A stretch of 64,000 nucleotides of DNA from Acidobacteriota bacterium. Its GTDB lineage: Bacteria > Acidobacteriota > Polarisedimenticolia > Gp22-AA2. Positions within the stretch are counted from its first letter, which is position 1, and every line of letters begins with the position of its first letter. Positions 11,002-34,152 of this stretch are shown one piece after another. The notes under the pieces are model-generated. The model was not told where the DNA came from, did no database searches, and worked only from the letters and a program-made list of their open reading frames with translations. Both the position numbers and the translations under genes were made by a program. The DNA is taken from the NCBI GenBank assembly GCA_003223135.1, contig QHXX01000038.1, positions 27,672 through 91,671 of the forward strand, given 5' to 3'.

Positions 11002-11134
11002 GAATGGACCTCCCTGGGATCGAAGGAGCGGATCCGGTCGAAACGCCACCGGATTGTAGCGGATCCCCGGCGCCGGGGAGCGGCCGCCGGACAGGTCGGA
11101 CCCCTGTGGTAAGATTCGCACGAGGCTCCGTCCA

Positions 11135-11797
11135 TTGGGGAACCCGCCAGAGCAGGACGACCCGTACGCCGGCGAGCGCGTGCGGATGGTCCGGGAGCAG
11201 ATCGAGCGGCGCGGGGTCTCGGACCCGAGGGTCCTGCGGGCGATGGAGTCGGTGCCGCGCCACCTGTTCGTGCCGGAGTCCTTCCGCACCAGCGCACATG
11301 ACGACGGGCCGCTGCCGATCGGAGAGGGGCAGACCATTTCCCAGCCGTACATCGTGGCGTTCATGAGCGAGGCGATCCGCCCCCGCCCGACCGACCGCGT
11401 GCTCGAAATCGGGACCGGCTCCGGGTACCAGGCCGCCGTACTGTCGCGCCTGGTGCAGCACGTCGACACGATCGAGGTCCGGCCCAGGCTGGCGGACATG
11501 GCACGCCAACGCCTGCGGGAGCTCGGCTTCGCCAACGTGACCGTGCGGGTCGGCGACGGTCACCGCGGCTTGCCGGAGCAGGCGCCGTTCGACGCGATCG
11601 TCGTGACGGCCGCGCCGCAGGACGTCCCGCCGGCGCTGCTCCAGCAGCTCGCCGTCGGCGGGCGGCTGGTCATCCCGCTCGGGACCCTCGATCAGGAGCT
11701 GGTTCGCGTGACACGCCGCGAGGATGGCACCGATCGGGAGTTCCTTCTCCCGGTTCGCTTCGTGCCACTGACGCGGGAGGCGAGGCGTCCGGACTAG
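11135..11797 (+). CDS. pcm: protein-L-isoaspartate O-methyltransferase
   Basis: VPRHLFVPE, GEGQTISQPYIVA, SAM motif LEIGTGSGYQAA; ORF-track start is TTG at 11135, alternative ATG at 11186 (MVREQIERRG). Confidence 0.9.
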   Translation: MGNPPEQDDPYAGERVRMVREQIERRGVSDPRVLRAMESVPRHLFVPESFRTSAHDDGPLPIGEGQTISQPYIVAFMSEAIRPRPTDRVLEIGTGSGYQAAVLSRLVQHVDTIEVRPRLADMARQRLRELGFANVTVRVGDGHRGLPEQAPFDAIVVTAAPQDVPPALLQQLAVGGRLVIPLGTLDQELVRVTRREDGTDREFLLPVRFVPLTREARRPD

Positions 11798-19095: not shown

Positions 19096-19765
19096 GCGAT
19101 TCCTCCACGTCGAGAGAGCGCAGGACACCGTTGGTCCCCAGCGTGAAAGTCATCTCGAGGAGCGGACGGCCGGGAAGCGACGTGTCCCAGTAGAACAGGT
19201 GACCCCGGAAGCCCTCCTCGACCTCGTCCGTCTCGATGCGCGACCATGCGTCCCGGGCGTCCAGGCTCTCCAAAAGGCGCTGCATCTCGGCTTCGCTTCC
19301 GCGCGCCCCTTCGAGGGCCACGACGTCCAGGGGCGTCAGGACGAGCTCGGGGAGAAGTCCCTCCAGACGCAGATCGCAGCCGATCATCTCGCGCGCGCTC
19401 GCGCGATCGAGGGACAGGCCGTCCCGCGCCACGGCCGCGCCGATCCGCCTTCGGGTCTCCTCCGCCGGCTGGGGAGGAACCCGCCCGAGGTTCGCCAGGT
19501 TCTCCGGCCACAGGCCGCGGACGCCGACGATCACCCAGGTCTCCGCGCAGGCGTTCGTGCAGACAACGTACAACCTCAAGTGTTTGAGGGGCGGGCAGGG
19601 AATCCTCTCGACCTCCACCCCGCCGATCCGCCCGGGATAGCGAGCGGAGAGCGCGGCGAGGCCGCGGCTGAGACCCTCCGGCGGATCGACGAGTGCCATG
19701 CCCCACAAGGCCACGATGGCCAGGAGCGCCATGAGGGCTCCGGCCAGCACACCGGTCCACCTCAC
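19046..19765 (-). CDS. hypothetical membrane-anchored protein, translationally coupled to upstream GT39/ArnT-like gene
   Basis: N-terminal TM LAGALMALLAIVALWGMAL; GTG start overlapping the ArnT-like TGA (GTGA); 3' end overlaps rmlB stop convergently by about 50 nt (true stop uncertain). Confidence 0.4.
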   Translation of the reverse strand: MRWTGVLAGALMALLAIVALWGMALVDPPEGLSRGLAALSARYPGRIGGVEVERIPCPPLKHLRLYVVCTNACAETWVIVGVRGLWPENLANLGRVPPQPAEETRRRIGAAVARDGLSLDRASAREMIGCDLRLEGLLPELVLTPLDVVALEGARGSEAEMQRLLESLDARDAWSRIETDEVEEGFRGHLFYWDTSLPGRPLLEMTFTLGTNGVLRSLDVEESLRGGSDSGSTRGTPPS

Positions 19766-21390
19766 CGCGCCGCGTCCTTCGACAACAGATGGTATGGCTG
19801 TCCCGCCACCGTGCCGCGGAGGTCTTCCACGACGCCGGGGAGCGCGGACAGATCGACCGCGCGCAGCAGGTCGTCCTCGATCAGAAGCTGCCGGGGACCG
19901 GGTCGCGAGAGATACTCGACGATGGCGGGCGGCGTGTCGGCCTCCTCGGCGAACCGGCCCGTGTAGAACACCCAGGCGTCACGCTTTTCTTCCGTCGTGG
20001 CGAAACCCGCCCGGGGATCCAGGCGCGTCTTCACGTCCGAGGCGAAGTGGCTGATGTTCTGGCGCCGGTTCACCCACGGCAGAAGGGCCTCCGTCGCCAC
20101 CAGGACCACGACGACGAGCGATCCCAGAAGACAGATCAAGGCACCCCCCGTGCGGCCCTTCGCGTGCAGGACCGCCGCCGCGACTGCCCCGGAAGCGAAG
20201 GCGAGCCCGATGGACGCTGCCACGAGGGTGAGCTCCGGATAGCGGTGGCGCGCCGCAAGCGGCAGTCCCGTCGCGAGGAGAAGCGCCGCCGCGGCCCACG
20301 CGATGAGGGGAGCGCGCAGGCGCCGCGCGCCGCCGGAGGAGACGTCCGACTCCCAGGCGCGGGCCAGGAGGCGCGCCACCAGGATCGCCGCCGCCGGGTA
20401 GAGCGGAATGATGTACACCCCGCGCTTGCCCGTCGAGAATGAGAAGAACAGGAGGATCGACGCGATCCAGGTCAGAAGGAAAAGCGCGGCGCTCCTGCGC
20501 TCGCGCTCCTCGCGCGACAGCGCCTGCGCGATGCCCCACGGCAGGAAGACGATCCAGGGGAAGAAGCCGACCGGGAAGCGCCACAGGTAATACCAGACGG
20601 GATGCGTCGCGTTCCACGCCCCGACGTAGCGCTCGACGTTCTGATGCATCAGGACCCAGAGCGCGTACCGGGGTCCCAGCCGCCAGGCGAACAGGCCGAA
20701 CCAGGACAGGGTGATCAGGAGGAAGAGGGCGATGCCGATCGGCGAAACGATGCGCCGAGCCGACCGGAAGTCGCGCTCGATGAGCGCCGACGGAAGCACC
20801 GCGAGGATCGGCAGGATCAGGCCCACGGGTCCCTTGGCCAGGGTCGCCAGCGCCATCATGACCCAGGCGAGGGCGATGCGGGTGCGCCCTCCGCCCTGCT
20901 CCGCGCGGCCCCGCCAGAGCAGCACGACGGCCGACAGGACGAAAAGGTTCAGCGTCATGTCGATCGCGGCCCAGCGGCCGCGCTCGAGGATCTGCAGGGA
21001 CGTGGCGAACACGAGCGCCGCGAGGAGACCGGTCCGCCGGTCGTAGAGCCAGGCACCCAGACGCTCGATCAGCAGGATTGCGAGAACCGCGGAGACCGCG
21101 GAAGGCAGCCGCGCCGCCCATTCGTCGATTCCCCCGAGGAGCCTCCCGAATCCATTGATCGCCCAGAAGAACAGCGGTGGCTTGTCGGTGTAAAGATGAT
21201 TATTGAGCGACAGCACCGAGTAATCTCCGCGGGCCCACATCTCCTTCGCCACGAGCGCGAAGCGCGGCTCGTCGGGCGGCCACAGGTCGTGAGAGCCGAG
21301 CCGCCAGAAGAACAGCACGAAGCCGGCGGCCAGGAGGAGCGCGAGACGGCGCCACGGACCGCGCGCGTTGACAGTGCCGGGTCCGTCCAT
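19762..21390 (-). CDS. GT39/ArnT-like polyprenyl-phosphate-sugar dependent glycosyltransferase (PMT_2 family), paralogue 1
   Basis: Multi-TM N-terminal domain with conserved DEPRFALVAKEM, YTDKPPLFFW, LAKGPVG motifs typical of ArnT/PMT-type C-glycosyltransferases; soluble C-terminal domain. Confidence 0.7.
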   Translation of the reverse strand: MDGPGTVNARGPWRRLALLLAAGFVLFFWRLGSHDLWPPDEPRFALVAKEMWARGDYSVLSLNNHLYTDKPPLFFWAINGFGRLLGGIDEWAARLPSAVSAVLAILLIERLGAWLYDRRTGLLAALVFATSLQILERGRWAAIDMTLNLFVLSAVVLLWRGRAEQGGGRTRIALAWVMMALATLAKGPVGLILPILAVLPSALIERDFRSARRIVSPIGIALFLLITLSWFGLFAWRLGPRYALWVLMHQNVERYVGAWNATHPVWYYLWRFPVGFFPWIVFLPWGIAQALSREERERRSAALFLLTWIASILLFFSFSTGKRGVYIIPLYPAAAILVARLLARAWESDVSSGGARRLRAPLIAWAAAALLLATGLPLAARHRYPELTLVAASIGLAFASGAVAAAVLHAKGRTGGALICLLGSLVVVVLVATEALLPWVNRRQNISHFASDVKTRLDPRAGFATTEEKRDAWVFYTGRFAEEADTPPAIVEYLSRPGPRQLLIEDDLLRAVDLSALPGVVEDLRGTVAGQPYHLLSKDAAR

Positions 21391-21441
21391 CTAGGATGCC
21401 CCCTCCCTGACGCGAGCGGACGCCGTTCCCGGAGACGACAG

Positions 21442-22002
21442 GTGACTGAGCGCAGCAGGACCCTCGGCCGCATTCGTCTCGCCGCCGTTTACGTCTTCAT
21501 CGCCGTCCTGATCGACGTGTCCCGCCCCACGCGGGCGTCTCTTCTGGCCGGAGCGACCCTCACACTCATCGGCGAGGCGATCCGGATCTGGGCGGCGGGA
21601 CACCTGACCAAGTCGGTCCGCCTCGTCACCTCCGGGCCGTACGCCTACACGCAGAACCCGCTGTATCTCGGGCGCCTGCTGATCCTCACCGGCCTCGCGA
21701 TCGCCGCGCGAACGGAAGGGTACCTGAACCTTCTCGCCCTTGCGCTGGGGTACGCCGTCTTCTTCTTTTATTACATCCCGCGCAAGCTGCGGGTGGAAGG
21801 AGGGCGTCTCGCCGGCCTGCACGGAGAGGCGTTCGAACAGTACCACCGGAGCGTGCCGATCCTGGTCCCGCGGCTCCGCCGCTATCCCGGCGGCCGGGAG
21901 GGATGGTCTTTCCGCCTCATCGTGGCGAACCAGGAGCCCCTCGTCCTGACCGGCATCGTGCTGGTGCTCGCCCTGCTGGCGTGGAAGACAGCGCATCCCT
22001 GA
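21442..22002 (+). CDS. isoprenylcysteine carboxyl methyltransferase / phospholipid methyltransferase-family membrane methyltransferase
   Basis: VTSGPYAYTQNPLYLG (ICMT/PEMT signature), 4-5 TM helices; GTG start with GGAG RBS; 51-bp divergent spacer to ArnT-like gene 1. Confidence 0.7.
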   Translation: MTERSRTLGRIRLAAVYVFIAVLIDVSRPTRASLLAGATLTLIGEAIRIWAAGHLTKSVRLVTSGPYAYTQNPLYLGRLLILTGLAIAARTEGYLNLLALALGYAVFFFYYIPRKLRVEGGRLAGLHGEAFEQYHRSVPILVPRLRRYPGGREGWSFRLIVANQEPLVLTGIVLVLALLAWKTAHP

Positions 22003-23090: not shown

Positions 23091-23202
23091 CCTACCTCCC
23101 GGTGACGCGCACCACGCCCGGCGCGGGGTCGATGGCGACCCTCCCGAGAGCGTCCCGCCATCCGCGGTCCCCATGATTATGAGCCGACCGGCGGGAGCCC
23201 GG

Positions 23203-24855
23203 TCACGGCCCCCCCATGCCCGGCATCGATCGTTCTTCCACGGTGCCGGCCCCGCCCGCCACGAGGAGCATCGTGCGGTGTCCGACCTGCTGTCGGTCCA
23301 GGACCTCCAGGTTCGGGTCGAGAGCCCGCCGCTCCGCCTCGTAGACGTCGTCCTCGATGAGACAGAAAGAGCGCCTCCCCGAGGAAAAATACTGTCTGAG
23401 CTCCTCGCGGTCGCGCAGGACCGGGATGAAGCGCCCGGTGTAGTAGACGTACGTCGGATGGTAGTCCGGATACATGGCCAGCGGCCGGTCGCCGACGACC
23501 CCCAAGATTCGATGGCAGAAGGCGCGGGCGGACTTGTGAGGGTCGAGGGCCGGCAGGACGGCGATCGGGATCACCAGGTAGGTGACCACAAGCCCGGTGC
23601 TGAAGGCCGCCAGGGCGGCTCCGCCCCCGCGGCGCCGGTGCACGACGAGGGCCAGGAGCGTCCCCAGACACGCCACCGACGCCAGGAGGGCCGCCGGACC
23701 CAGCAGGTCGGGGGCCTGGACCCTGAGCTTCGGCAGCACCACGATCGCACCGCCGAGCGCCAGCAGGAGCGAGGTCCCGAGCAACCAGGAGATCGGGCGG
23801 TCGGCCGGCGATGGTTCCCAGCCGAGGAGGGCCAGGTCCCACACGCGCGCCACGAGAAGGGCGAGAAGCGGAAGGAGCGGCAGGAGGTACACGCCGCGTT
23901 TCTCGACCGACAGGCCGAACACGGTGAAGGTGACCAGGATCCATGAATAGACGTAGGCGTTGTCCCTGTCGGGCCGCGCGCCGCGCCGGGGAAGGGTCTG
24001 CCAGAGGGCCGCGGGGAGCAGGAGCACCCAGGGGAAGAATTCCGCCGCCAGGCTGATCAGGACGTGGTAGAACGGATGCGCGTGGTGCTCGCCGCGCGTG
24101 AAGCGGTGCGCCAGACGGAGGAGAAGCGCCTCCAGCGGGAACGCTTCGCCGGTGCTGCGGTAGGCGGCGACCCACAGGCCGGCCGGAACGAGGGCCAGCG
24201 GCAGGCCCCAGGCCAGCCCCATGCGCCTCACGAAACCGAGGTCGCGCGACGAGGCCAGGAACACGATGACGGACAGCAGGGGAATCAGGAGACCGTGCGG
24301 TCCCTTGGTGAGATTCGCCAGACCGATCGATAGATAGAAGACCGCCAGGAAACGCCGATCCCCCCCGGCACGGTAGGCCTGGTGGAACGCCACGCACGAG
24401 AGCAGAAGCCAGAACGTCCACAGCATGTCGGGATGGGCCCAGCGTGCCTCCATGAAATAGCCGTAGGTCGTCGCCAGAATGACGGCCGCGAGCGCCCCGG
24501 TGCGCCGGCCGAACAGACCACGGCCCAGGTAAAAGACCACGAACAGGCCGAGGAGGGCCGCCAGGCTCGACGGCAGGCGAAGCGCGAATTCCGTGGGCCT
24601 CCCCGCCGGCAGCGAGGCGAGCGCCCCCAGCCAGGGGTACAGAGGCGGCTTCTCGAAATAGAGCTGCTGGTTGTCGCGCAGGACGGCCCATGACCCGGTC
24701 AGATGGATCTCGCGTACGACTTCCCCGACGTCCGGCTCGTCGGGGGCCCAGAGGTCGTGCCCGCCCAGGCCGGTGGCGAAGAGCGCAACACCGAGAAGGA
24801 GGAGCAGCAGGAGGCAGTTCCGGTCGCTCCGGAAGATGCGGATCGCCAGGGACAT
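23203..24855 (-). CDS. GT39/ArnT-like glycosyltransferase (PMT_2 family), paralogue 2
   Basis: Same architecture and motifs as 19762..21390 (DEPDVGEVVREI, YFEKPPLYPW, LTKGPHG); multi-TM plus C-terminal soluble domain. Confidence 0.7.
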   Translation of the reverse strand: MSLAIRIFRSDRNCLLLLLLLGVALFATGLGGHDLWAPDEPDVGEVVREIHLTGSWAVLRDNQQLYFEKPPLYPWLGALASLPAGRPTEFALRLPSSLAALLGLFVVFYLGRGLFGRRTGALAAVILATTYGYFMEARWAHPDMLWTFWLLLSCVAFHQAYRAGGDRRFLAVFYLSIGLANLTKGPHGLLIPLLSVIVFLASSRDLGFVRRMGLAWGLPLALVPAGLWVAAYRSTGEAFPLEALLLRLAHRFTRGEHHAHPFYHVLISLAAEFFPWVLLLPAALWQTLPRRGARPDRDNAYVYSWILVTFTVFGLSVEKRGVYLLPLLPLLALLVARVWDLALLGWEPSPADRPISWLLGTSLLLALGGAIVVLPKLRVQAPDLLGPAALLASVACLGTLLALVVHRRRGGGAALAAFSTGLVVTYLVIPIAVLPALDPHKSARAFCHRILGVVGDRPLAMYPDYHPTYVYYTGRFIPVLRDREELRQYFSSGRRSFCLIEDDVYEAERRALDPNLEVLDRQQVGHRTMLLVAGGAGTVEERSMPGMGGP

Positions 24856-24911
24856 TCTTTCGTGGCTCCCGGCCCCGAAACGGGCCCGACACCGCGGAGG
24901 TCGAGGATCGC

Positions 24912-26780
24912 TCAGAGGACCGAGGCCTCCGGTGCCGGCCGATCGTCGCGGAATTGCAGCGCGTACAGACGCGCGTAGTGGCCCTTGCGCGCCAGAAGTT
25001 CCGGGTGCGTGCCGCGCTCGACCAGGGAACCCTCGTCGAGGACCAGGATGACATCGGCCCGGCGTACGGTCGAGAGGCGATGGGCAATGACGAACACGGT
25101 CCGCCCGGTCATCAAGTTCTGGAGGGCGCCCTGCACCTCGGCTTCCGATTCCATGTCCAGAGACGACGTCGCCTCGTCCAGGATGAGAATCGGGGAGTCC
25201 TTCAAGATGGCCCGGGCGATCGAGATCCTCTGCCTCTGCCCCAGTGACAGCCGGTGGCCGGCCTCCCCGAGCGTCGTGTCGAATCCGCGCGGCAGCGCCT
25301 CGATGAACTGCTCGGCGTGGGCGGCGCGCGCCGCCGCCGTCACCCTGTCCAACGGCACGTCGGCCCGGCCGTAGGCGATGTTGTTGCGCACGGTGTCGTC
25401 AAACAGAATCACCTCCTGCGTGACGATCCCGATCTGCGCGCGAAGCGACGCCAGCGACACTTCGCGGACGTCCCGGCCGTCGATGAGCACCGCCCCCTTG
25501 TTCACGTCGTAGAATCGCGGCAGCAGGTTCACCAGGGTCGACTTGCCGGCCCCGCTGGAACCGACCAGGGCGACGACCGTGCCGGCGGGAACGACGAGGT
25601 CGACGCCCCGAAGGACCGGCGCCTGGCCGTAGGCGAAGTGCACGCCCCGGAACTCGATCCGGTCGCGGAACGGCGGCAGATCCAGGGCCGCCGGTTTTTC
25701 GCGGATGCGGTTCGGCAGGTCCATAAGCTGGAAGACGCGCTGGGCCGCCGCCATCGCCTGCTGCACCTCGTTGTTGATCTTCACAAGGTTCTTGATCGAT
25801 CCGTAGATCATGAACAGAGCGGCGAAGAAGGTGAAGACATCGGCGGGGGAGAGCTTCCCCGCGTGGATGCGCTGCAGGGCGTAGGCCAGGAGGATGGCGG
25901 CCCCGATGGCGCCGACCAGCTCCAGCACGGGGGCGGTCAGCGACACCAGCCGCGCCGCCCGTTTCTCGGCATTCTGGATACGGTCGAGGGCCCTGCGGAA
26001 GCGCCCGATCTCGAACTCCTCCATCCCGAAGCCCTGCACGATGCGCGTTCCGGTGATCCCCTCCTTCATCACGTCGACCGCCTCGCCCATCTTCTCCTGG
26101 CTCCGCCGGCTGGTGGCCTTGAGGCGCGCCCCGAAGCGCGCCACCGGATAGACGAGCAGGGGCAGGAGGATCAGGCAGAAGGAGGCGAGCCGCGCGTTGA
26201 GGTAGAACAGCCAGGCGGCCTGCCCGATGACGATCGCCCCGAGACGGAACACCTCGGCGAGGTCGCCGGACACGAGTCTCTGGAGCCGCCCCACGTCGTT
26301 CACCACGCGGGAGATCAGGCTGCCCGTCGGGTGATCCGAGAAGAACGCCAGCGATTGTCTCTGGACCCGCGCGTACAGGTCGGCGCGGAGATCACGCACC
26401 GCCTGCAGGCCCGCCGAGCGCGTCAGGTACGAGGCGAGGTAGGTGAAGATCCCCTTGAGGACGAACAGCACGACGATCAGAACCGCGATCAGGATGATCG
26501 TGCCCTTCGTCCCGCCGCCCAGCCAGCGGGCGAACGGCAGGCCGGGCGCATCCGTCCCGCCGGCGCCGAGGAGCTTCCTGAGGTGATCGAACGGCCGGGT
26601 CTTGCCGGCGGCGGCGCCCGGGAGCGTCACGGCACCCGGGAAGAGCAGCTCCAGGATCGGCTGGATGAGGACCAGGAGGCCCACATAGACGAGGGAGATG
26701 AGAACGGAGCACACGGCGGCCGCGATCAGGCGGCCGAGGTAGGGCCGCACGTAGCGCAGCAGCCGGCGAAAATCCTTCAT
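24912..26780 (-). CDS. msbA: ABC transporter ATP-binding/permease, MsbA-like lipid A/lipid exporter
   Basis: 6-TM exporter domain plus NBD with Walker A GSSGAGKST, signature LSLGQRQR, Walker B ILILDEATS; GAGGA RBS. Confidence 0.85.
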   Translation of the reverse strand: MKDFRRLLRYVRPYLGRLIAAAVCSVLISLVYVGLLVLIQPILELLFPGAVTLPGAAAGKTRPFDHLRKLLGAGGTDAPGLPFARWLGGGTKGTIILIAVLIVVLFVLKGIFTYLASYLTRSAGLQAVRDLRADLYARVQRQSLAFFSDHPTGSLISRVVNDVGRLQRLVSGDLAEVFRLGAIVIGQAAWLFYLNARLASFCLILLPLLVYPVARFGARLKATSRRSQEKMGEAVDVMKEGITGTRIVQGFGMEEFEIGRFRRALDRIQNAEKRAARLVSLTAPVLELVGAIGAAILLAYALQRIHAGKLSPADVFTFFAALFMIYGSIKNLVKINNEVQQAMAAAQRVFQLMDLPNRIREKPAALDLPPFRDRIEFRGVHFAYGQAPVLRGVDLVVPAGTVVALVGSSGAGKSTLVNLLPRFYDVNKGAVLIDGRDVREVSLASLRAQIGIVTQEVILFDDTVRNNIAYGRADVPLDRVTAAARAAHAEQFIEALPRGFDTTLGEAGHRLSLGQRQRISIARAILKDSPILILDEATSSLDMESEAEVQGALQNLMTGRTVFVIAHRLSTVRRADVILVLDEGSLVERGTHPELLARKGHYARLYALQFRDDRPAPEASVL

Positions 26781-27274: not shown

Positions 27275-28176
27275 GCTCGCCCCCGCGCGCCCGCAGAGGG
27301 GGCCGCCTCCCGCAACAGCGCCTCGACCGCCTCGCCGATCTCGGCGGGACTCTGCAGGACGCGCGCGCCATACTCCTGCAGTGCCGCCATCTTCTCGGCC
27401 GCGGTCCCGTGTCCCCCGGCGATGATCGCGCCGGCATGCCCCATCCGCTTGCCGGGCGGGGCGGTCTGCCCCGCCACGAACGCGACCATCGGCTTGTTCA
27501 GATCACGGGCGGCATAGCGCGCCGCCTCCTCCTCAGCGCCGCCGCCGATCTCGCCGATGAGCACGATGACACGCGTCTCCGCGTCGTCACGGAACAGCGC
27601 GAGGGCGTCCACGAAGGTGGTCCCGATGATCGGATCGCCCCCGATGCCGAGGCAGGTGCTCTGCCCGATGCCGCGCTTCGAGAGCTGCGCCACCGCCTCG
27701 TAGGTCAGGGTTCCGCTGCGCGAGATCACGCCGACCGGCCCCGGCTTGTGGATGTAGCCCGGCATGATGCCGATCTTGCACTTGCCGGGGGAAATGATTC
27801 CCGGGCAGTTCGGCCCGATCAGGCGCGTCGGGCCGTCCTCGAGCGCGGCCGCGACCCGCACCATGTCGGAGGCGGGGATTCCCTCCGTGATGCAGACCGC
27901 CAGCTTCAATCGAGCGTCGGCGGCCTCCAGGATGGCGTCGGCGGCGGCGGCCGGCGGGACGAAGATCATCGAGGCGTCGGCCCCCGTTTTCTCGACGGCC
28001 TCCAGGACCGTGTCGAAGACCGTGATCCCCTCGTGCACCGTGCCGCCACGGCCTGGGGTGACGCCGGCGACGATCTTCGTGCCGTACTCGCGGCAGCCGC
28101 GGGCGTGGAACGTCCCCTCGCGCCCGGTGATCCCCTGCACGATGACGCGCGTGTTCTGGTCGACCAGGATGCTCAT
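27271..28176 (-). CDS. sucD: succinate--CoA ligase alpha subunit
   Basis: [18 protein letters not shown], CoA-binding GxxG, phospho-His loop GHAGAII; internal ATG of ORF 27271..28560; 4-nt overlap with sucC and ndk. Confidence 0.95.
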
Positions 28177-29336
28177 CGCGCCCCCGCCAGCGCCACGACT
28201 TTCTTCGCGGCGTCCAGCATCCCTTCGGCCAGGGTGAAATTGAGTCCCGATTCCTGCAGAATGCGTCGCCCCTCGTCGACGTTCGTCCCCTCCAGGCGCG
28301 CGACGACCGGTACGCGCAGCTCCACCTTCCTGACGGCGTCCACCAGACCGCGCGCCAGGACGTCCACGCGCAGGATCCCGCCGAAGATGTTGATCAGGAC
28401 GGCCTTCACGTTCTGATCCGCGAGGAGGATCTTGAACGCGGAGGCGACCTGCTCGGAGGTGGCGCCGCCGCCCACATCCAGGAAGTTGGCCGGCTCGCCG
28501 CCCACGAGCTTGATGATGTCCATGGTCGCCATTGCCAGGCCGGCGCCGTTCACCATGCATCCCACGTTCCCCTGCAGCTTGATGTAGTTGAGCCCGTGGG
28601 CCGAGGCCTCGACCTCGAGCGGGTCCTCCTCCTCCGGGTCCCTCAGCTCCCGGATCTCGGGGTGGCGGAAAAGCGCGTTGTCGTCGAAGCTCATCTTCGC
28701 GTCCAGGGCGAGGAGCCCGCCCTGCCGCGTCACGACCAGTGGATTGATCTCCAGGAGCGACGCGTCGGTCTCCACGTAGGCCGCAACCATGGCCTGCATC
28801 AGCCGCGCGGCGCGCGCCACCTCCTCGCCCTTCAGGCCGAGCGCGTAGCCAATGCGGCGCGCTTGATACGGGCGGAAGCCGACGAGCGGGTCGACCGGCT
28901 CGACCCGGAGGGCCGAGGGATCCTTGCGGGCGACCTCCTCGATGTCCATGCCGCCTCGACCCGATCCCATCACCACGGGAACGGAGCGACCCCGGTCGAG
29001 CGTGACTCCCAGGTAGATCTCTCGAGCGATGTCGACCGGCTCTTCAATCAAGAGACGCCGCACCCTCTTGCCCTGCGGGCCGGTCTGGGGCGTCACCAGG
29101 TTCATGCCGATCATCTGCCGCGCCAGGCGCTCCGCCTCCTCGACGTCGCCGGCGATCTTGACTCCGCCGCCCTTGCCGCGCCCGCCGGCATGGATCTGCG
29201 CCTTGACGACGCACCGTCCGCCGAGCCGCGAGGCGATGGCGCCGGCCTCTTTCGGGCTGAAGGCGACATCACCCCTCGGCACGTCGATCCCGAAGCGCTT
29301 CAGGATCTGCTTGGCCTGATATTCGTGGATCTTCAT
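28173..29336 (-). CDS. sucC: succinate--CoA ligase beta subunit
   Basis: [15 protein letters not shown]-grasp, GGxxxGGG region; start trimmed to MKIHEY. Confidence 0.95.
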
Positions 29337-29396
29337 CAGCACGACCCCGCGCGCGCCTGCGCCGCGCAAAACGGGCCTTTCGGACAAGGGCCATCC

Positions 29397-29425
29397 TATA
29401 TAGCATCCGGCCAGGATCGTGTCAA
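29397..29425 (-). promoter_or_regulatory. putative sigma70 promoter for sucCD-ndk (TTGACA-N17-TATATA on minus strand)
   Basis: Revcomp of 29420-29425 is TTGACA; 17-nt spacer; revcomp of 29397-29402 is TATATA; about 55-60 nt upstream of sucC ATG. Confidence 0.45.
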
Positions 29426-29434
29426 ACCATTGTT

Positions 29435-29463
29435 TTGACAGCCCTTTCCTGCTCTGCTACGAT
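29435..29463 (+). promoter_or_regulatory. putative sigma70 promoter for dacB (TTGACA-N17-TACGAT)
   Basis: TTGACA 29435-29440, 17-nt spacer, TACGAT 29458-29463, about 33 nt upstream of dacB ATG; shares palindrome TGTCAAA-N7-TTTGACA with the divergent sucC promoter. Confidence 0.45.
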
Positions 29464-29496
29464 GCGCTCGCCATCCTAGTTGGAGTCGCTCGCTCG

Positions 29497-31110
29497 ATGC
29501 AGCAGAACACTCCACAGCCCGAGCGGCCCCGTCGTCCGTCCGGGCCGGCCTGCATCGTTTCGCTCGTCGCTCTCCTGACCCTTGCGGGCATAACGCCACG
29601 CGCCCGCGCCTCCGAAAGCCCTCCCGCCCCGATGCCTCTTGCCGAACGCCTGGCGCCTCTCGTGCGCGCTCCCGCCTTGAGCCCGGACGAGACCGGCATC
29701 GCCATTCTCTTGCTCCCGGAGGGGCGCCCGATCTTCACGCGCAACGCCGATCGGCCTCTTCTGCCGGCCTCGACTCTCAAGATCCTCACCAGCGCTGCCG
29801 CGCTGGCGCTCCTGAAACCCGAGTTCCTCTACCAGACACGCATCTTCGCCGACGCGCCCATCGATGCCGCGGGGACCGTCGCCGGGAATCTCTACATCCA
29901 GGGATTCGGGGCGCCCGACCTGATCGCCGAGTCGTGGTGGCTGTTGGCGAAAAGGCTCTCGGCCCTGGGGCTGCGCCGGGTCGACGGAGATTTGGTCGCG
30001 GATGAGTCGTACTTCGACACGGTGCGCCGGCCGCCGGGCTGGCCCCAGCTTGCGGCGGACTCCTGGTACAACGCCCCGGTCGGCGCTCTCTCCTGCAACT
30101 TCAACGTGGTCACGGTGACCGTCGACCCGTCCCCGCTCCTCGGAGCGCGTCCCGACCTCACCCTCGAGCCGGCCGCCTCCTACTTCCAGGTCCTGAACCG
30201 GGCGACGACGACCACCGGCCCGAATTCTCTGAGCGTGTCGCGTTCGTTCGAAAATGGCCAGAACGGGCTCGTCGTCACCGGCACGATCAGGCGGGGTAGC
30301 GGGCCGGCCGTGTTCCACCGGGCGGTCGAAGAGCCTGCCCTCTACGCCCTGCACACCTTCCGCGAGATCGCGCGCTCGGAGCGCATCGAGATCAAGGGCA
30401 ATCTCGCGGTCGGCGCGGTGCCCGACAAGGCGCGCGAGCTGCACGCCCACGAGTCGCGTCCGCTCGGGGCGCTGGTGCGCGACATGAACAAGAACAGCAA
30501 CAACTTCATGGCCGAGATGCTGGTGAAGACGCTGGCGGCCCAGTTCGTTGGGACGCCGGGCACGACGGCCGCGGGGCTCGATGTGATAAGGAACTACATC
30601 GCCGGTCTCGGCATCGACGTGTCGGGCGTGCGCCTCATGGACGGCTCCGGCCTGTCGGACGAGGACAGAGTACCGGCACGCGTGCTCGCCGAGGTCCTGG
30701 CGCGCTTCTGGGGCGACTTCGAGATTGGCCCGGAGCTGGTGGCGTCGCTCCCGATCGGCGGCGCCGACGGGACGCTCGACGAGCGCTTCGGCGGTGAGGG
30801 ATCGCGGCGCCGCGTGCGCGCCAAGACGGGACGGATCGCCGGCGCCCTGACGCTCGCCGGCTACGCCGCCAACCGGGACGGCCGCACGCTCGCCTTCGTG
30901 GTGCTCGCCGGCCGGCCGCGCGGCACGATCGACGCCGTGCACCGCGCCATCGACCGGCTGGTGGACGAGGTCGTCGCGAGCACCGACGCCGATCTCGGGC
31001 TCAACCCCGCCGGGGCAGGTGCTCCGCCGGGAATCAGACCTGAAGCTTCGACACCAGCTCCCGTACCGCGGCCGCCGAGCGGTCCAGCGACGACTTCTCC
31101 TCGACGGTGA
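29497..31110 (+). CDS. dacB: D-alanyl-D-alanine carboxypeptidase/endopeptidase (PBP4, peptidase S13)
   Basis: Signal peptide, active-site STLK ([14 protein letters not shown]), SDN-like and KTG (RAKTGRIAG) motifs; 3' end overlaps mdh stop convergently (about 77 nt). Confidence 0.85.
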
Positions 31111-33221: not shown

Positions 33222-33342
33222 GATGACGGTCTCCTCGCGTCCCCTCCCCGCCGCGTGGCCGCGGCTTCGGGCCCGGTGGGAAACGGCACGGACGCTCTGA
33301 ATGCGGAATGGGCGGTGAATCTAGCACAGCGCCGGGTCAGGT

Positions 33343-34152
33343 TCAATACTGGACCAGCGACCCTTCCTGCCGCGCCTTGCGCACCGCGAAGCGGAAGGCC
33401 AGGATGCCGATTGGCAGGAGGACGGCGACGAACAGCACCAGGACCTCGATGTCGGGCAGCAGCTCGGAGAAACGGCTGCCGCGCAGGAGGGCGCGGCGGA
33501 GGGCGCGCAGCGCGTAGGTGATCGGCAGGAGATGCGACCAGCCGCCGAGCCACCTCGGCATGTCCTCCGGCGGGTAGAACACCCCGCCCACCAGGGCCGA
33601 GCCGCTCGCCACCAGATAGGTGATCGGGTCGCCGCGCTTGAGATAGAGCACGAAGGCGGCCGACAGGATGCCGATACCGGAGAAGGCCAGGACCGTCAGC
33701 GCGATGATCAAGAGCGCGGGAAGCAGGCTGTCGAGGTGTATCACGACGCCGAAGAACAGCCGCCCGACCACGAGGTATGCGATCACCTTGATCGAGGTGA
33801 GCAGAAACTCCCACAGCGACGACCCCAGAACGATCGTCCCGATGGGTGTCGGCGTCAGCAGCATCGCTTCGAGCGTTCCCGTCATCTGCTCGCCGCGCAC
33901 CTTGCCACCGAACGACATGAGGGCCGAGGACAGGTAGTGCAGGAGCGCCAGCCCCAGGAGTACGTACGCGAAGTAGTCGACCCCTTCCAGGCCGGGTGTC
34001 GTCGGCGGCGCGTTCACCACGCGCGACACGAAGTACCAGATCAGGACCGAGAAGACGATCCCGAAGGCCTGCAGCAGGAACGAGGTCCGGTACGAGACCT
34101 CGATGAGGAAGTCGCGCTTGATGAAGGCGACGAGCGTCCGCAGGGTCTTCAT
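33343..34152 (-). CDS. ABC-2 type transporter permease
   Basis: 269 aa, 6 TM helices, ABC-2 family pattern; 4-nt overlap with upstream ATPase gene; internal ATG (MKTLRTLVAF) of ORF 33343..34224. Confidence 0.75.
   Translation of the reverse strand: MKTLRTLVAFIKRDFLIEVSYRTSFLLQAFGIVFSVLIWYFVSRVVNAPPTTPGLEGVDYFAYVLLGLALLHYLSSALMSFGGKVRGEQMTGTLEAMLLTPTPIGTIVLGSSLWEFLLTSIKVIAYLVVGRLFFGVVIHLDSLLPALLIIALTVLAFSGIGILSAAFVLYLKRGDPITYLVASGSALVGGVFYPPEDMPRWLGGWSHLLPITYALRALRRALLRGSRFSELLPDIEVLVLFVAVLLPIGILAFRFAVRKARQEGSLVQY

Follow-up and report, generated by a model that had tools for sequence, protein, structure and literature searches.

The 67-bp core at positions 29397-29463, located between the divergent sucC and dacB genes, is probably a compact back-to-back pair of housekeeping sigma70-family promoters, and no separate operator is needed to account for it. 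All positions refer to the window, that is, the whole 64-kb stretch of DNA that was analysed. Comparison of orthologous spacers demonstrates that the core carries two complete sets of predicted promoter elements, which are arranged back to back and are subject to strong purifying selection. Each promoter would consist of a perfect TTGACA -35 box and a TA-rich -10 box, with TGc at the end of the 17-bp spacer between them; the leftward promoter is predicted to drive sucC-sucD-ndk from a start near 29390 and the rightward promoter dacB from a start near 29470. The palindrome that spans the middle of the core, with two 7-bp arms separated by 7 bp, arises because two identical -35 boxes sit head to head 9 bp apart, each extended by one T. 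Purifying selection on both promoters appears to have held this cassette nearly unchanged across Ca. Polarisedimenticolia.

Genomic context of the sucC/dacB spacer

The divergent spacer is exactly 160 bp long, as claimed in the first-pass annotation, and the GC content of the window (0.68) agrees with the estimate of an about 70% GC genome made there. Past dacB, mdh and icd are encoded on the minus strand. The peptidoglycan gene dacB is thus found, between 26852 and 33221, on the opposite strand within a cluster of TCA-cycle genes (icd-mdh / dacB / sucCD-ndk), and this gene order is kept in the relatives L001-L023 wherever the fetched DNA covers the respective genes. The dacB and mdh genes converge with a 77-nt overlap of their 3' ends (31034-31110), and conservation is lacking in the final ~35 residues of DacB. 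Elsewhere in the window, a 636-aa ORF (23177-25087, minus strand) located 3' of an msbA-like gene has no match in NCBIfam or Pfam.

The close loci that encode DacB belong to Acidobacteriota MAGs, most of which are labelled Ca. Polarisedimenticolia (subdivision 22), a class without a cultured member according to the literature. An alphaproteobacterial origin of the window was rejected on the strength of these relatives. The same cassette is also present in four loci (L006, L012, L013 and L019) that encode DacB ~66-73% and SucC 72-80% identical to those of the window, and that come from MAGs labelled Binatia, Patescibacteria, Cryosericum and Verrucomicrobiia. Such assignments are probably the result of mis-binning or wrong labelling of the contigs that carry the cassette.

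Architecture of the 67-bp core

The genes and the predicted promoter elements are listed in Table 1. Direct reading of the sequence confirms the perfect 7-bp inverted repeat TGTCAAA-N7-TTTGACA that was originally noticed at 29420-29440, with the left arm TGTCAAA at 29420-29426, the central CCATTGT at 29427-29433 and the right arm TTTGACA at 29434-29440; the motifs TTGACA-N17-TACGAT directed toward dacB and TTGACA-N17-TATATA directed toward sucCD-ndk are likewise present as described.

Table 1. Genes and predicted promoter elements of the sucC/dacB locus (window coordinates)
Feature	Coordinates	Strand	Remarks
sucC, succinate--CoA ligase beta subunit	28173..29336	-	NF001913, 558 bits; first gene of sucC-sucD-ndk
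Predicted sucCD-ndk transcription start, ~29390	29388..29392	-	from the -10 position; leader ~55-56 nt
-10 hexamer TATATA, sucCD-ndk promoter	29397..29402	-	17 nt from the -35 box
TGc extended -10 motif, sucC promoter	29403..29405	-	sequence read
-35 hexamer TTGACA, sucC promoter	29420..29425	-	left dyad arm, which runs to 29426
Inter-box 9 bp, ACCATTGTT	29426..29434		conserved, asymmetric; between the two -35 boxes
-35 hexamer TTGACA, dacB promoter	29435..29440	+	right dyad arm, which begins at 29434
TGc extended -10 motif, dacB promoter	29455..29457	+	promoter scan: TG before the second hexamer
-10 hexamer TACGAT, dacB promoter	29458..29463	+	17-nt spacer from the -35 box
Predicted dacB transcription start, ~29470	29469..29473	+	from the -10 position; leader ~27 nt
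dacB, PBP4-type D-Ala-D-Ala carboxypeptidase/endopeptidase	29497..31110	+	TIGR00666, 263 bits

The core elements of the two promoters (29397-29425 on the minus strand and 29435-29463 on the plus strand) do not overlap, face outward and leave 9 bp between them, with the -10 boxes 55 bp apart and the predicted starts ~80 bp apart. This is the layout of a back-to-back pair, in which separate core elements on opposite strands fire apart. The dacB side shows the complete sigma70-family pattern, namely a TTGACA -35 box, a 17-bp spacer, within the 16-18 bp range, and a -10 box of the TAnnnT form, and the sucC side conforms to it in the -35 box (TTGACA) and the spacer (17 bp). In addition, both sides possess the extended -10 motif, with TG at -15/-14, one base before the -10 hexamer. 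A GGAG ribosome-binding site for dacB is located at 29482-29485.

The dacB-side site scores 10/12, with TG present, in the promoter scan, which missed the sucC-side site because it demands T at position 6 of the hexamer. A separate scan, which covered the 64-kb window on both strands, ranked these sites first and second among all promoter-like sites. The TTGACA hexamer as such is not enriched in the window (8 found vs 9.7 expected), and the dyad, with up to 2 mismatches allowed, is expected 0.03 times per window.

Other genes in the window are preceded by promoter-like sites of similar build, in support of the promoter reading of the core. The third-best is TTGACA-N18-TAGGAT at 21368-21397 (plus strand), 5' of a gene for a PEMT-like membrane methyltransferase (21442-22002); its -35 box lies within the 5' end of a divergent PMT_2 glycosyltransferase gene (19762-21390). 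A candidate promoter of icd-mdh at 33318-33346 (minus strand) reads TTGAAC-N17(TGc)-TAGATT; it shares the extended -10 layout of the core promoters and has no dyad. The ABC-2 permease gene upstream ends in a stop codon that overlaps the -35 box of this candidate, for which a leader of ~90 nt is predicted. The sequence TGGTAAGAT at 11107-11115 (plus strand) is an extended -10 motif with a 4/6 match to the -35 box, located ~20 nt before a gene that starts at 11135. Altogether, the TGnTAnnnT motif is found at 14 sites in the window vs ~27 expected from composition.

Given that the two arms can form a 7-bp stem with a 7-nt loop, the dyad might also be viewed as an RNA or DNA hairpin that functions as a terminator, an attenuator or a processing site. 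The probability of this alternative appears to be close to negligible. The predicted fold is weak (-5.1 kcal/mol, z = -1.6; 14 of 200 shuffled sequences fold equally well), no T-run follows the dyad, the terminator scan did not report it, and the dyad region has no match in Rfam at E <= 1. Furthermore, the dyad is located upstream of both predicted starts, so that the hairpin would be part of neither mRNA, and because the arms are invariant, there is no covariation to back the pairing.

Conservation of the predicted promoter elements among relatives

A DacB search of species-representative genomes yielded 33 loci, and in 20 of these sucC is located divergently upstream of dacB. The query being a protein, the presence of the dyad had no influence on which loci were sampled. 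The two genes are divergent in 20/20 spacers, and the exact dyad, with 9 nt between the hexamers, is found in 16 of the 20; the first-pass annotation had named a lack of conservation in related genomes as an outcome that would refute its reading of the spacer, and on this point the independently retrieved spacers do not refute it. Among these relatives, the four-fold degenerate sites of sucC show an identity of 0.53 vs 0.43 expected from composition. Neutral sites in sucC are therefore near saturation, and the conservation of the spacer reflects selection.

Pairwise identities were calculated over anchored, ungapped columns for the window and the 16 dyad-bearing relatives (17 sequences). Both -35 boxes are identical throughout (1.00), followed by the TGn motif (0.96 on the dacB side and 0.79 on the sucC side) and the -10 boxes (0.75 and 0.85, respectively), with much lower values for the middles of the two promoter spacers (0.56-0.58) and the regions outside the -10 boxes (0.40). 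The sole departure from a plain promoter pattern is the 9 nt between the -35 boxes, with an identity of 0.86.

The details of the -10 regions were compared in 42 distinct 67-nt cores, including those of metagenomic loci that were selected on the dyad and not on the -10 regions. The dacB-side -10 box occurs as TACGAT, GAGAAT, TAGGAT, TAGCAT or TACCAT, which together account for 41 of the 42 cores and all have A in the second and T in the sixth position. The one core left over can be matched with a spacer of 18 nt. The TGn motif is present in 41/42 cores on the dacB side and, at the 17-nt register, in 37/42 cores on the sucC side, where the other 5 have it with an 18-nt spacer. The promoter spacers of the orthologues are accordingly 17 nt long, and occasionally 18 nt.

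On the sucC side, hexamer positions 1, 2, 4 and 6 are conserved across the 42 cores, and A at position 2 is always there. Position 6 is A, not the canonical T, in 42/42 cores (TATATA, TAGAAA, TATAGA, TAAAAA, AATATA). This invariant A counts against a model that includes nothing but two promoters, although the conserved TGn and the perfect -35 box may compensate for it. Other registers for the sucC -10 box (CTATAT with a 16-nt spacer and the downstream TAGGAT/TAGAAT), as well as a plus-strand TAGCAT -10 box, were considered and rejected because the conserved TG comes to lie in its proper place in every lineage with the 17-nt register alone, and because each of the alternatives is without a conserved -35 box.

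The absence of the canonical T in all orthologues is also what could be expected if only one of the two promoters were functional, with the other arm serving as UP-like or curvature DNA and the second gene transcribed from elsewhere. Under such a scheme, however, it would be hard to understand why TGn, the -10 box and the fixed 17-18 nt spacing are maintained on both sides, and in many relatives the interval from the -10 box to the start codon is too short, on both sides, to hold a further promoter. A single functional promoter therefore seems very unlikely.

Leaders and start codons

Across the upstream regions of L001-L108, the same promoter would drive either a leaderless or a short-leader version of sucC, depending on the relative. 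In 9 distinct cores, only 6-11 nt separate the -10 box from the start codon of sucC, which is ATG in 8 cases. At this distance other promoters lack room, and the sucC mRNA would be leaderless or nearly so in these nine lineages. In 25 cores with a predicted sucC leader of 19-23 nt, the start codon is GTG or TTG in 25/25, and the short-leader cores inspected by eye, for example L009, have a GGAG ribosome-binding site. In 6 further cores, the window among them, the distance from the -10 box to the sucC start is 56-60 nt. Leaderless bacterial genes are recognised in silico by a -10-like TA signal ~12 nt upstream of the start codon (PMC3160421). On the other side of the core, L039 and L047 have the dacB ATG 10 nt downstream of the -10 box.

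At sigma70-family promoters, transcription starts 6-9 nt downstream of the -10 box, and the leaderless geometry of the relatives indirectly supports the predicted sucC start near 29390 in the window. The leader of sucC in the window (~55-56 nt) is GC-rich and not conserved among the relatives, and a search for a structured element in it gave no fold signal (z = +1.17). The description of the spacer as harbouring back-to-back near-consensus sigma70 promoters thus holds up well: conservation is specific to the promoter elements, the spacing is 17-18 nt, the -10 boxes are of the TAnnnT type, and in some relatives the genes start next to the -10 box.

Natural variants of the dyad and the search for a regulator

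A further function was proposed for the dyad in the first-pass annotation, namely that of a plausible operator for a dimeric regulator that would co-control TCA-cycle and peptidoglycan genes, with simple competition for RNA polymerase between the promoters as the other option. According to the operator alternative, a dedicated, probably dimeric regulator would act on top of two real promoters, with the 21-bp dyad TGTCAAACCNTTGTTTTGACA as its operator; a factor bound over both -35 boxes would repress or co-activate sucCD-ndk and dacB together. The perfect 7-bp inverted repeat is compatible with such a site, the identity of the 9 bp between the boxes is well above that of the promoter spacers, and even the most diverged lineages that carry the dyad have the complete 21-mer without a change, in spite of altered flanks. 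The geometry of the repeat is nevertheless unfavourable: the arm centres are separated by 14 bp, whereas dimer sites usually follow a one-turn spacing, and the conserved inner bases are asymmetric about the dyad centre.

Natural variants point in the same direction. In L011, 4 bp between the arms are lost (TGTCAgttgttTTGACA), so that the arm spacing is not fixed, yet both -35/-10 pairs are still of the N17 type. Three other relatives are without the dyad: in L021, the two promoters are ~55 bp further apart; in L023, sucC has its own TTGACT-N18-TATAAT; and in L008, the sucC-side -35 box is lost and the -10 box is better (TAGAAT). The -35/-10 pairs mostly persist in these four dyad-broken variants, and the locus therefore works without the dyad. 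In more distant relatives, the promoters are kept and the dyad is absent.

Further copies of the element, for which a genome search had been proposed, were not found: the 64-kb window has none with up to 2 mismatches, and the window combined with ~490 kb of high-GC DNA from relatives has none when 3 mismatches are allowed. A metagenome scan of 241 million records with the query TGTCAAACNNNTGTTTTGACA, in which the conserved spacer is fixed, matched 75 loci. The orthologous sucC/dacB spacer accounts for 44 of these, all of them high-GC, whereas the remaining 31 are unrelated contigs, almost all of them low-GC, with unrelated flanks and in approximately the number estimated for chance. The scan of neighbouring genes revealed no regulator gene, and the candidate promoter of icd-mdh, the neighbouring TCA operon, has no dyad.

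Known types of sites were also compared with the dyad, namely TnrA/GlnR sites, CRP/FNR boxes, LacI-type palindromes and sigma54 -24/-12 promoters, and all were rejected because of misfits in spacing or orientation. The TnrA/GlnR site has the form TGTNA-N7-TNACA, and the related TGTCA-N7-TGACA arises only in the L011 deletion variant, by chance.

Taken together, the 14-bp distance between the arm centres, the L011 variant and the lack of a second copy in the scanned DNA leave the proposed operator unsupported, and we consider it improbable, albeit less so than either the hairpin or the single promoter. A slightly lower, similarly small chance can be assigned to a broader possibility, namely that the 21-bp element with its conserved, asymmetric 9-bp centre is either the site of an undescribed regulator or a dedicated two-polymerase architecture that couples sucCD-ndk with the PBP4 gene. 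If that were the case, central carbon flux would be linked to cell-wall remodelling via one shared switch.

Possible interplay between the two polymerases

Under the favoured interpretation of the core as a pair of sigma70-family promoters, the centres of the -35 boxes are 15 bp apart (~1.4 helical turns), so that the contacts of sigma region 4 would fall on nearly opposite faces of the helix. Two polymerases could therefore both bind, and might share or compete for the 9-bp stretch between the boxes. They may also influence each other through transcription-driven negative supercoiling, and interplay of this kind, be it competition or supercoiling coupling, is plausible for the sucC/dacB pair by analogy with other divergent promoters.

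The conservation of the 9 bp (29426..29434) is another observation that counts against the promoter-only model, in which the inter-box identity of 0.86 is explained only by invoking upstream contacts of the polymerase. A near-consensus promoter also has no obvious rationale for a PBP4 gene. The proximal UP elements of E. coli promoters are contacted by the alpha C-terminal domains. Each of the two promoters would see the arm of the other as CAAA at about -47 to -44, and the shared 9 bp would fall at the position of these proximal contacts. Such a UP-like position could account for the conservation of the stretch, which is thus possibly shared contact DNA for both polymerases or, alternatively, a factor site.

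Implications

The promoters of Acidobacteriota, in particular those of the uncultured Polarisedimenticolia, are essentially uncharacterised, and a literature search for transcription start site or promoter data in Acidobacteria found nothing usable. The cassette provides a high-confidence comparative example of a housekeeping promoter of this lineage, with TTGACA, a 17-bp spacer ending in TGn and TAnnnT. For genetic tools, the 67-bp bidirectional module might be of use as a strong constitutive part. The relatives also offer a natural series in which one promoter is combined with sucC genes that either begin with ATG and lack a leader or begin with GTG/TTG behind a short leader with GGAG. Biologically, this is ordinary regulatory DNA that does not reveal a new mechanism on its own.

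Comparison with known systems

The operators tetO, bioO and the mer operator are palindromes that overlap divergent promoters. Similarly, the sucC/dacB inverted repeat has its centre between two divergent genes and coincides in part with promoter elements. In contrast to these operators, neither a cognate regulator nor regulon copies were found for it in the scanned DNA, and the distance between its arms deviates from one helical turn and can vary, as seen in L011. The arms of the sucC/dacB dyad match the -35 consensus exactly and are therefore already explained.

Extended -10 promoters offer another parallel, in that the same TGc is found, conserved, directly 5' of both sucC/dacB -10 boxes, and also in the icd promoter. 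The '-16 region' type of extended -10 promoter is common in Gram-positive bacteria. In contrast to extended -10 promoters, which often have weak -35 boxes, the sucC/dacB promoters have perfect ones, and the sucC -10 box differs from this class in ending with A rather than T.

In symmetric bidirectional promoters, the -10 elements are common to both directions or overlap, and the distance between the starts is 7-25 bp, with 18 bp as the typical value (bioRxiv 10.1101/2020.01.31.928960; PMC12825309). Divergent transcription would result from the symmetry of promoter elements in that class and in the sucC/dacB pair alike. In the latter, however, it is the -35 boxes that are symmetric; each direction has its own -10 box, and ~80 bp separate the predicted starts. 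With -10 boxes at a distance of 55 bp, assignment to the symmetric, -10-sharing class was rejected.

The best match is with back-to-back promoters, a class for which supercoiling coupling between the partners is established and in which polymerases may alternatively compete for DNA upstream (PMC4469952, PMC5175336). Unlike pairs of the ilvY/ilvC type, the sucC/dacB pair has two perfect -35 boxes that are 9 bp apart and form an exact palindrome, and its cassette is conserved across a bacterial class. In other respects, the arrangement is that of the back-to-back pairs described by Beck and Warren, such as E. coli ilvY/ilvC, with separate cores on opposite strands that would fire apart, a short shared upstream region and predicted starts ~80 bp from each other.
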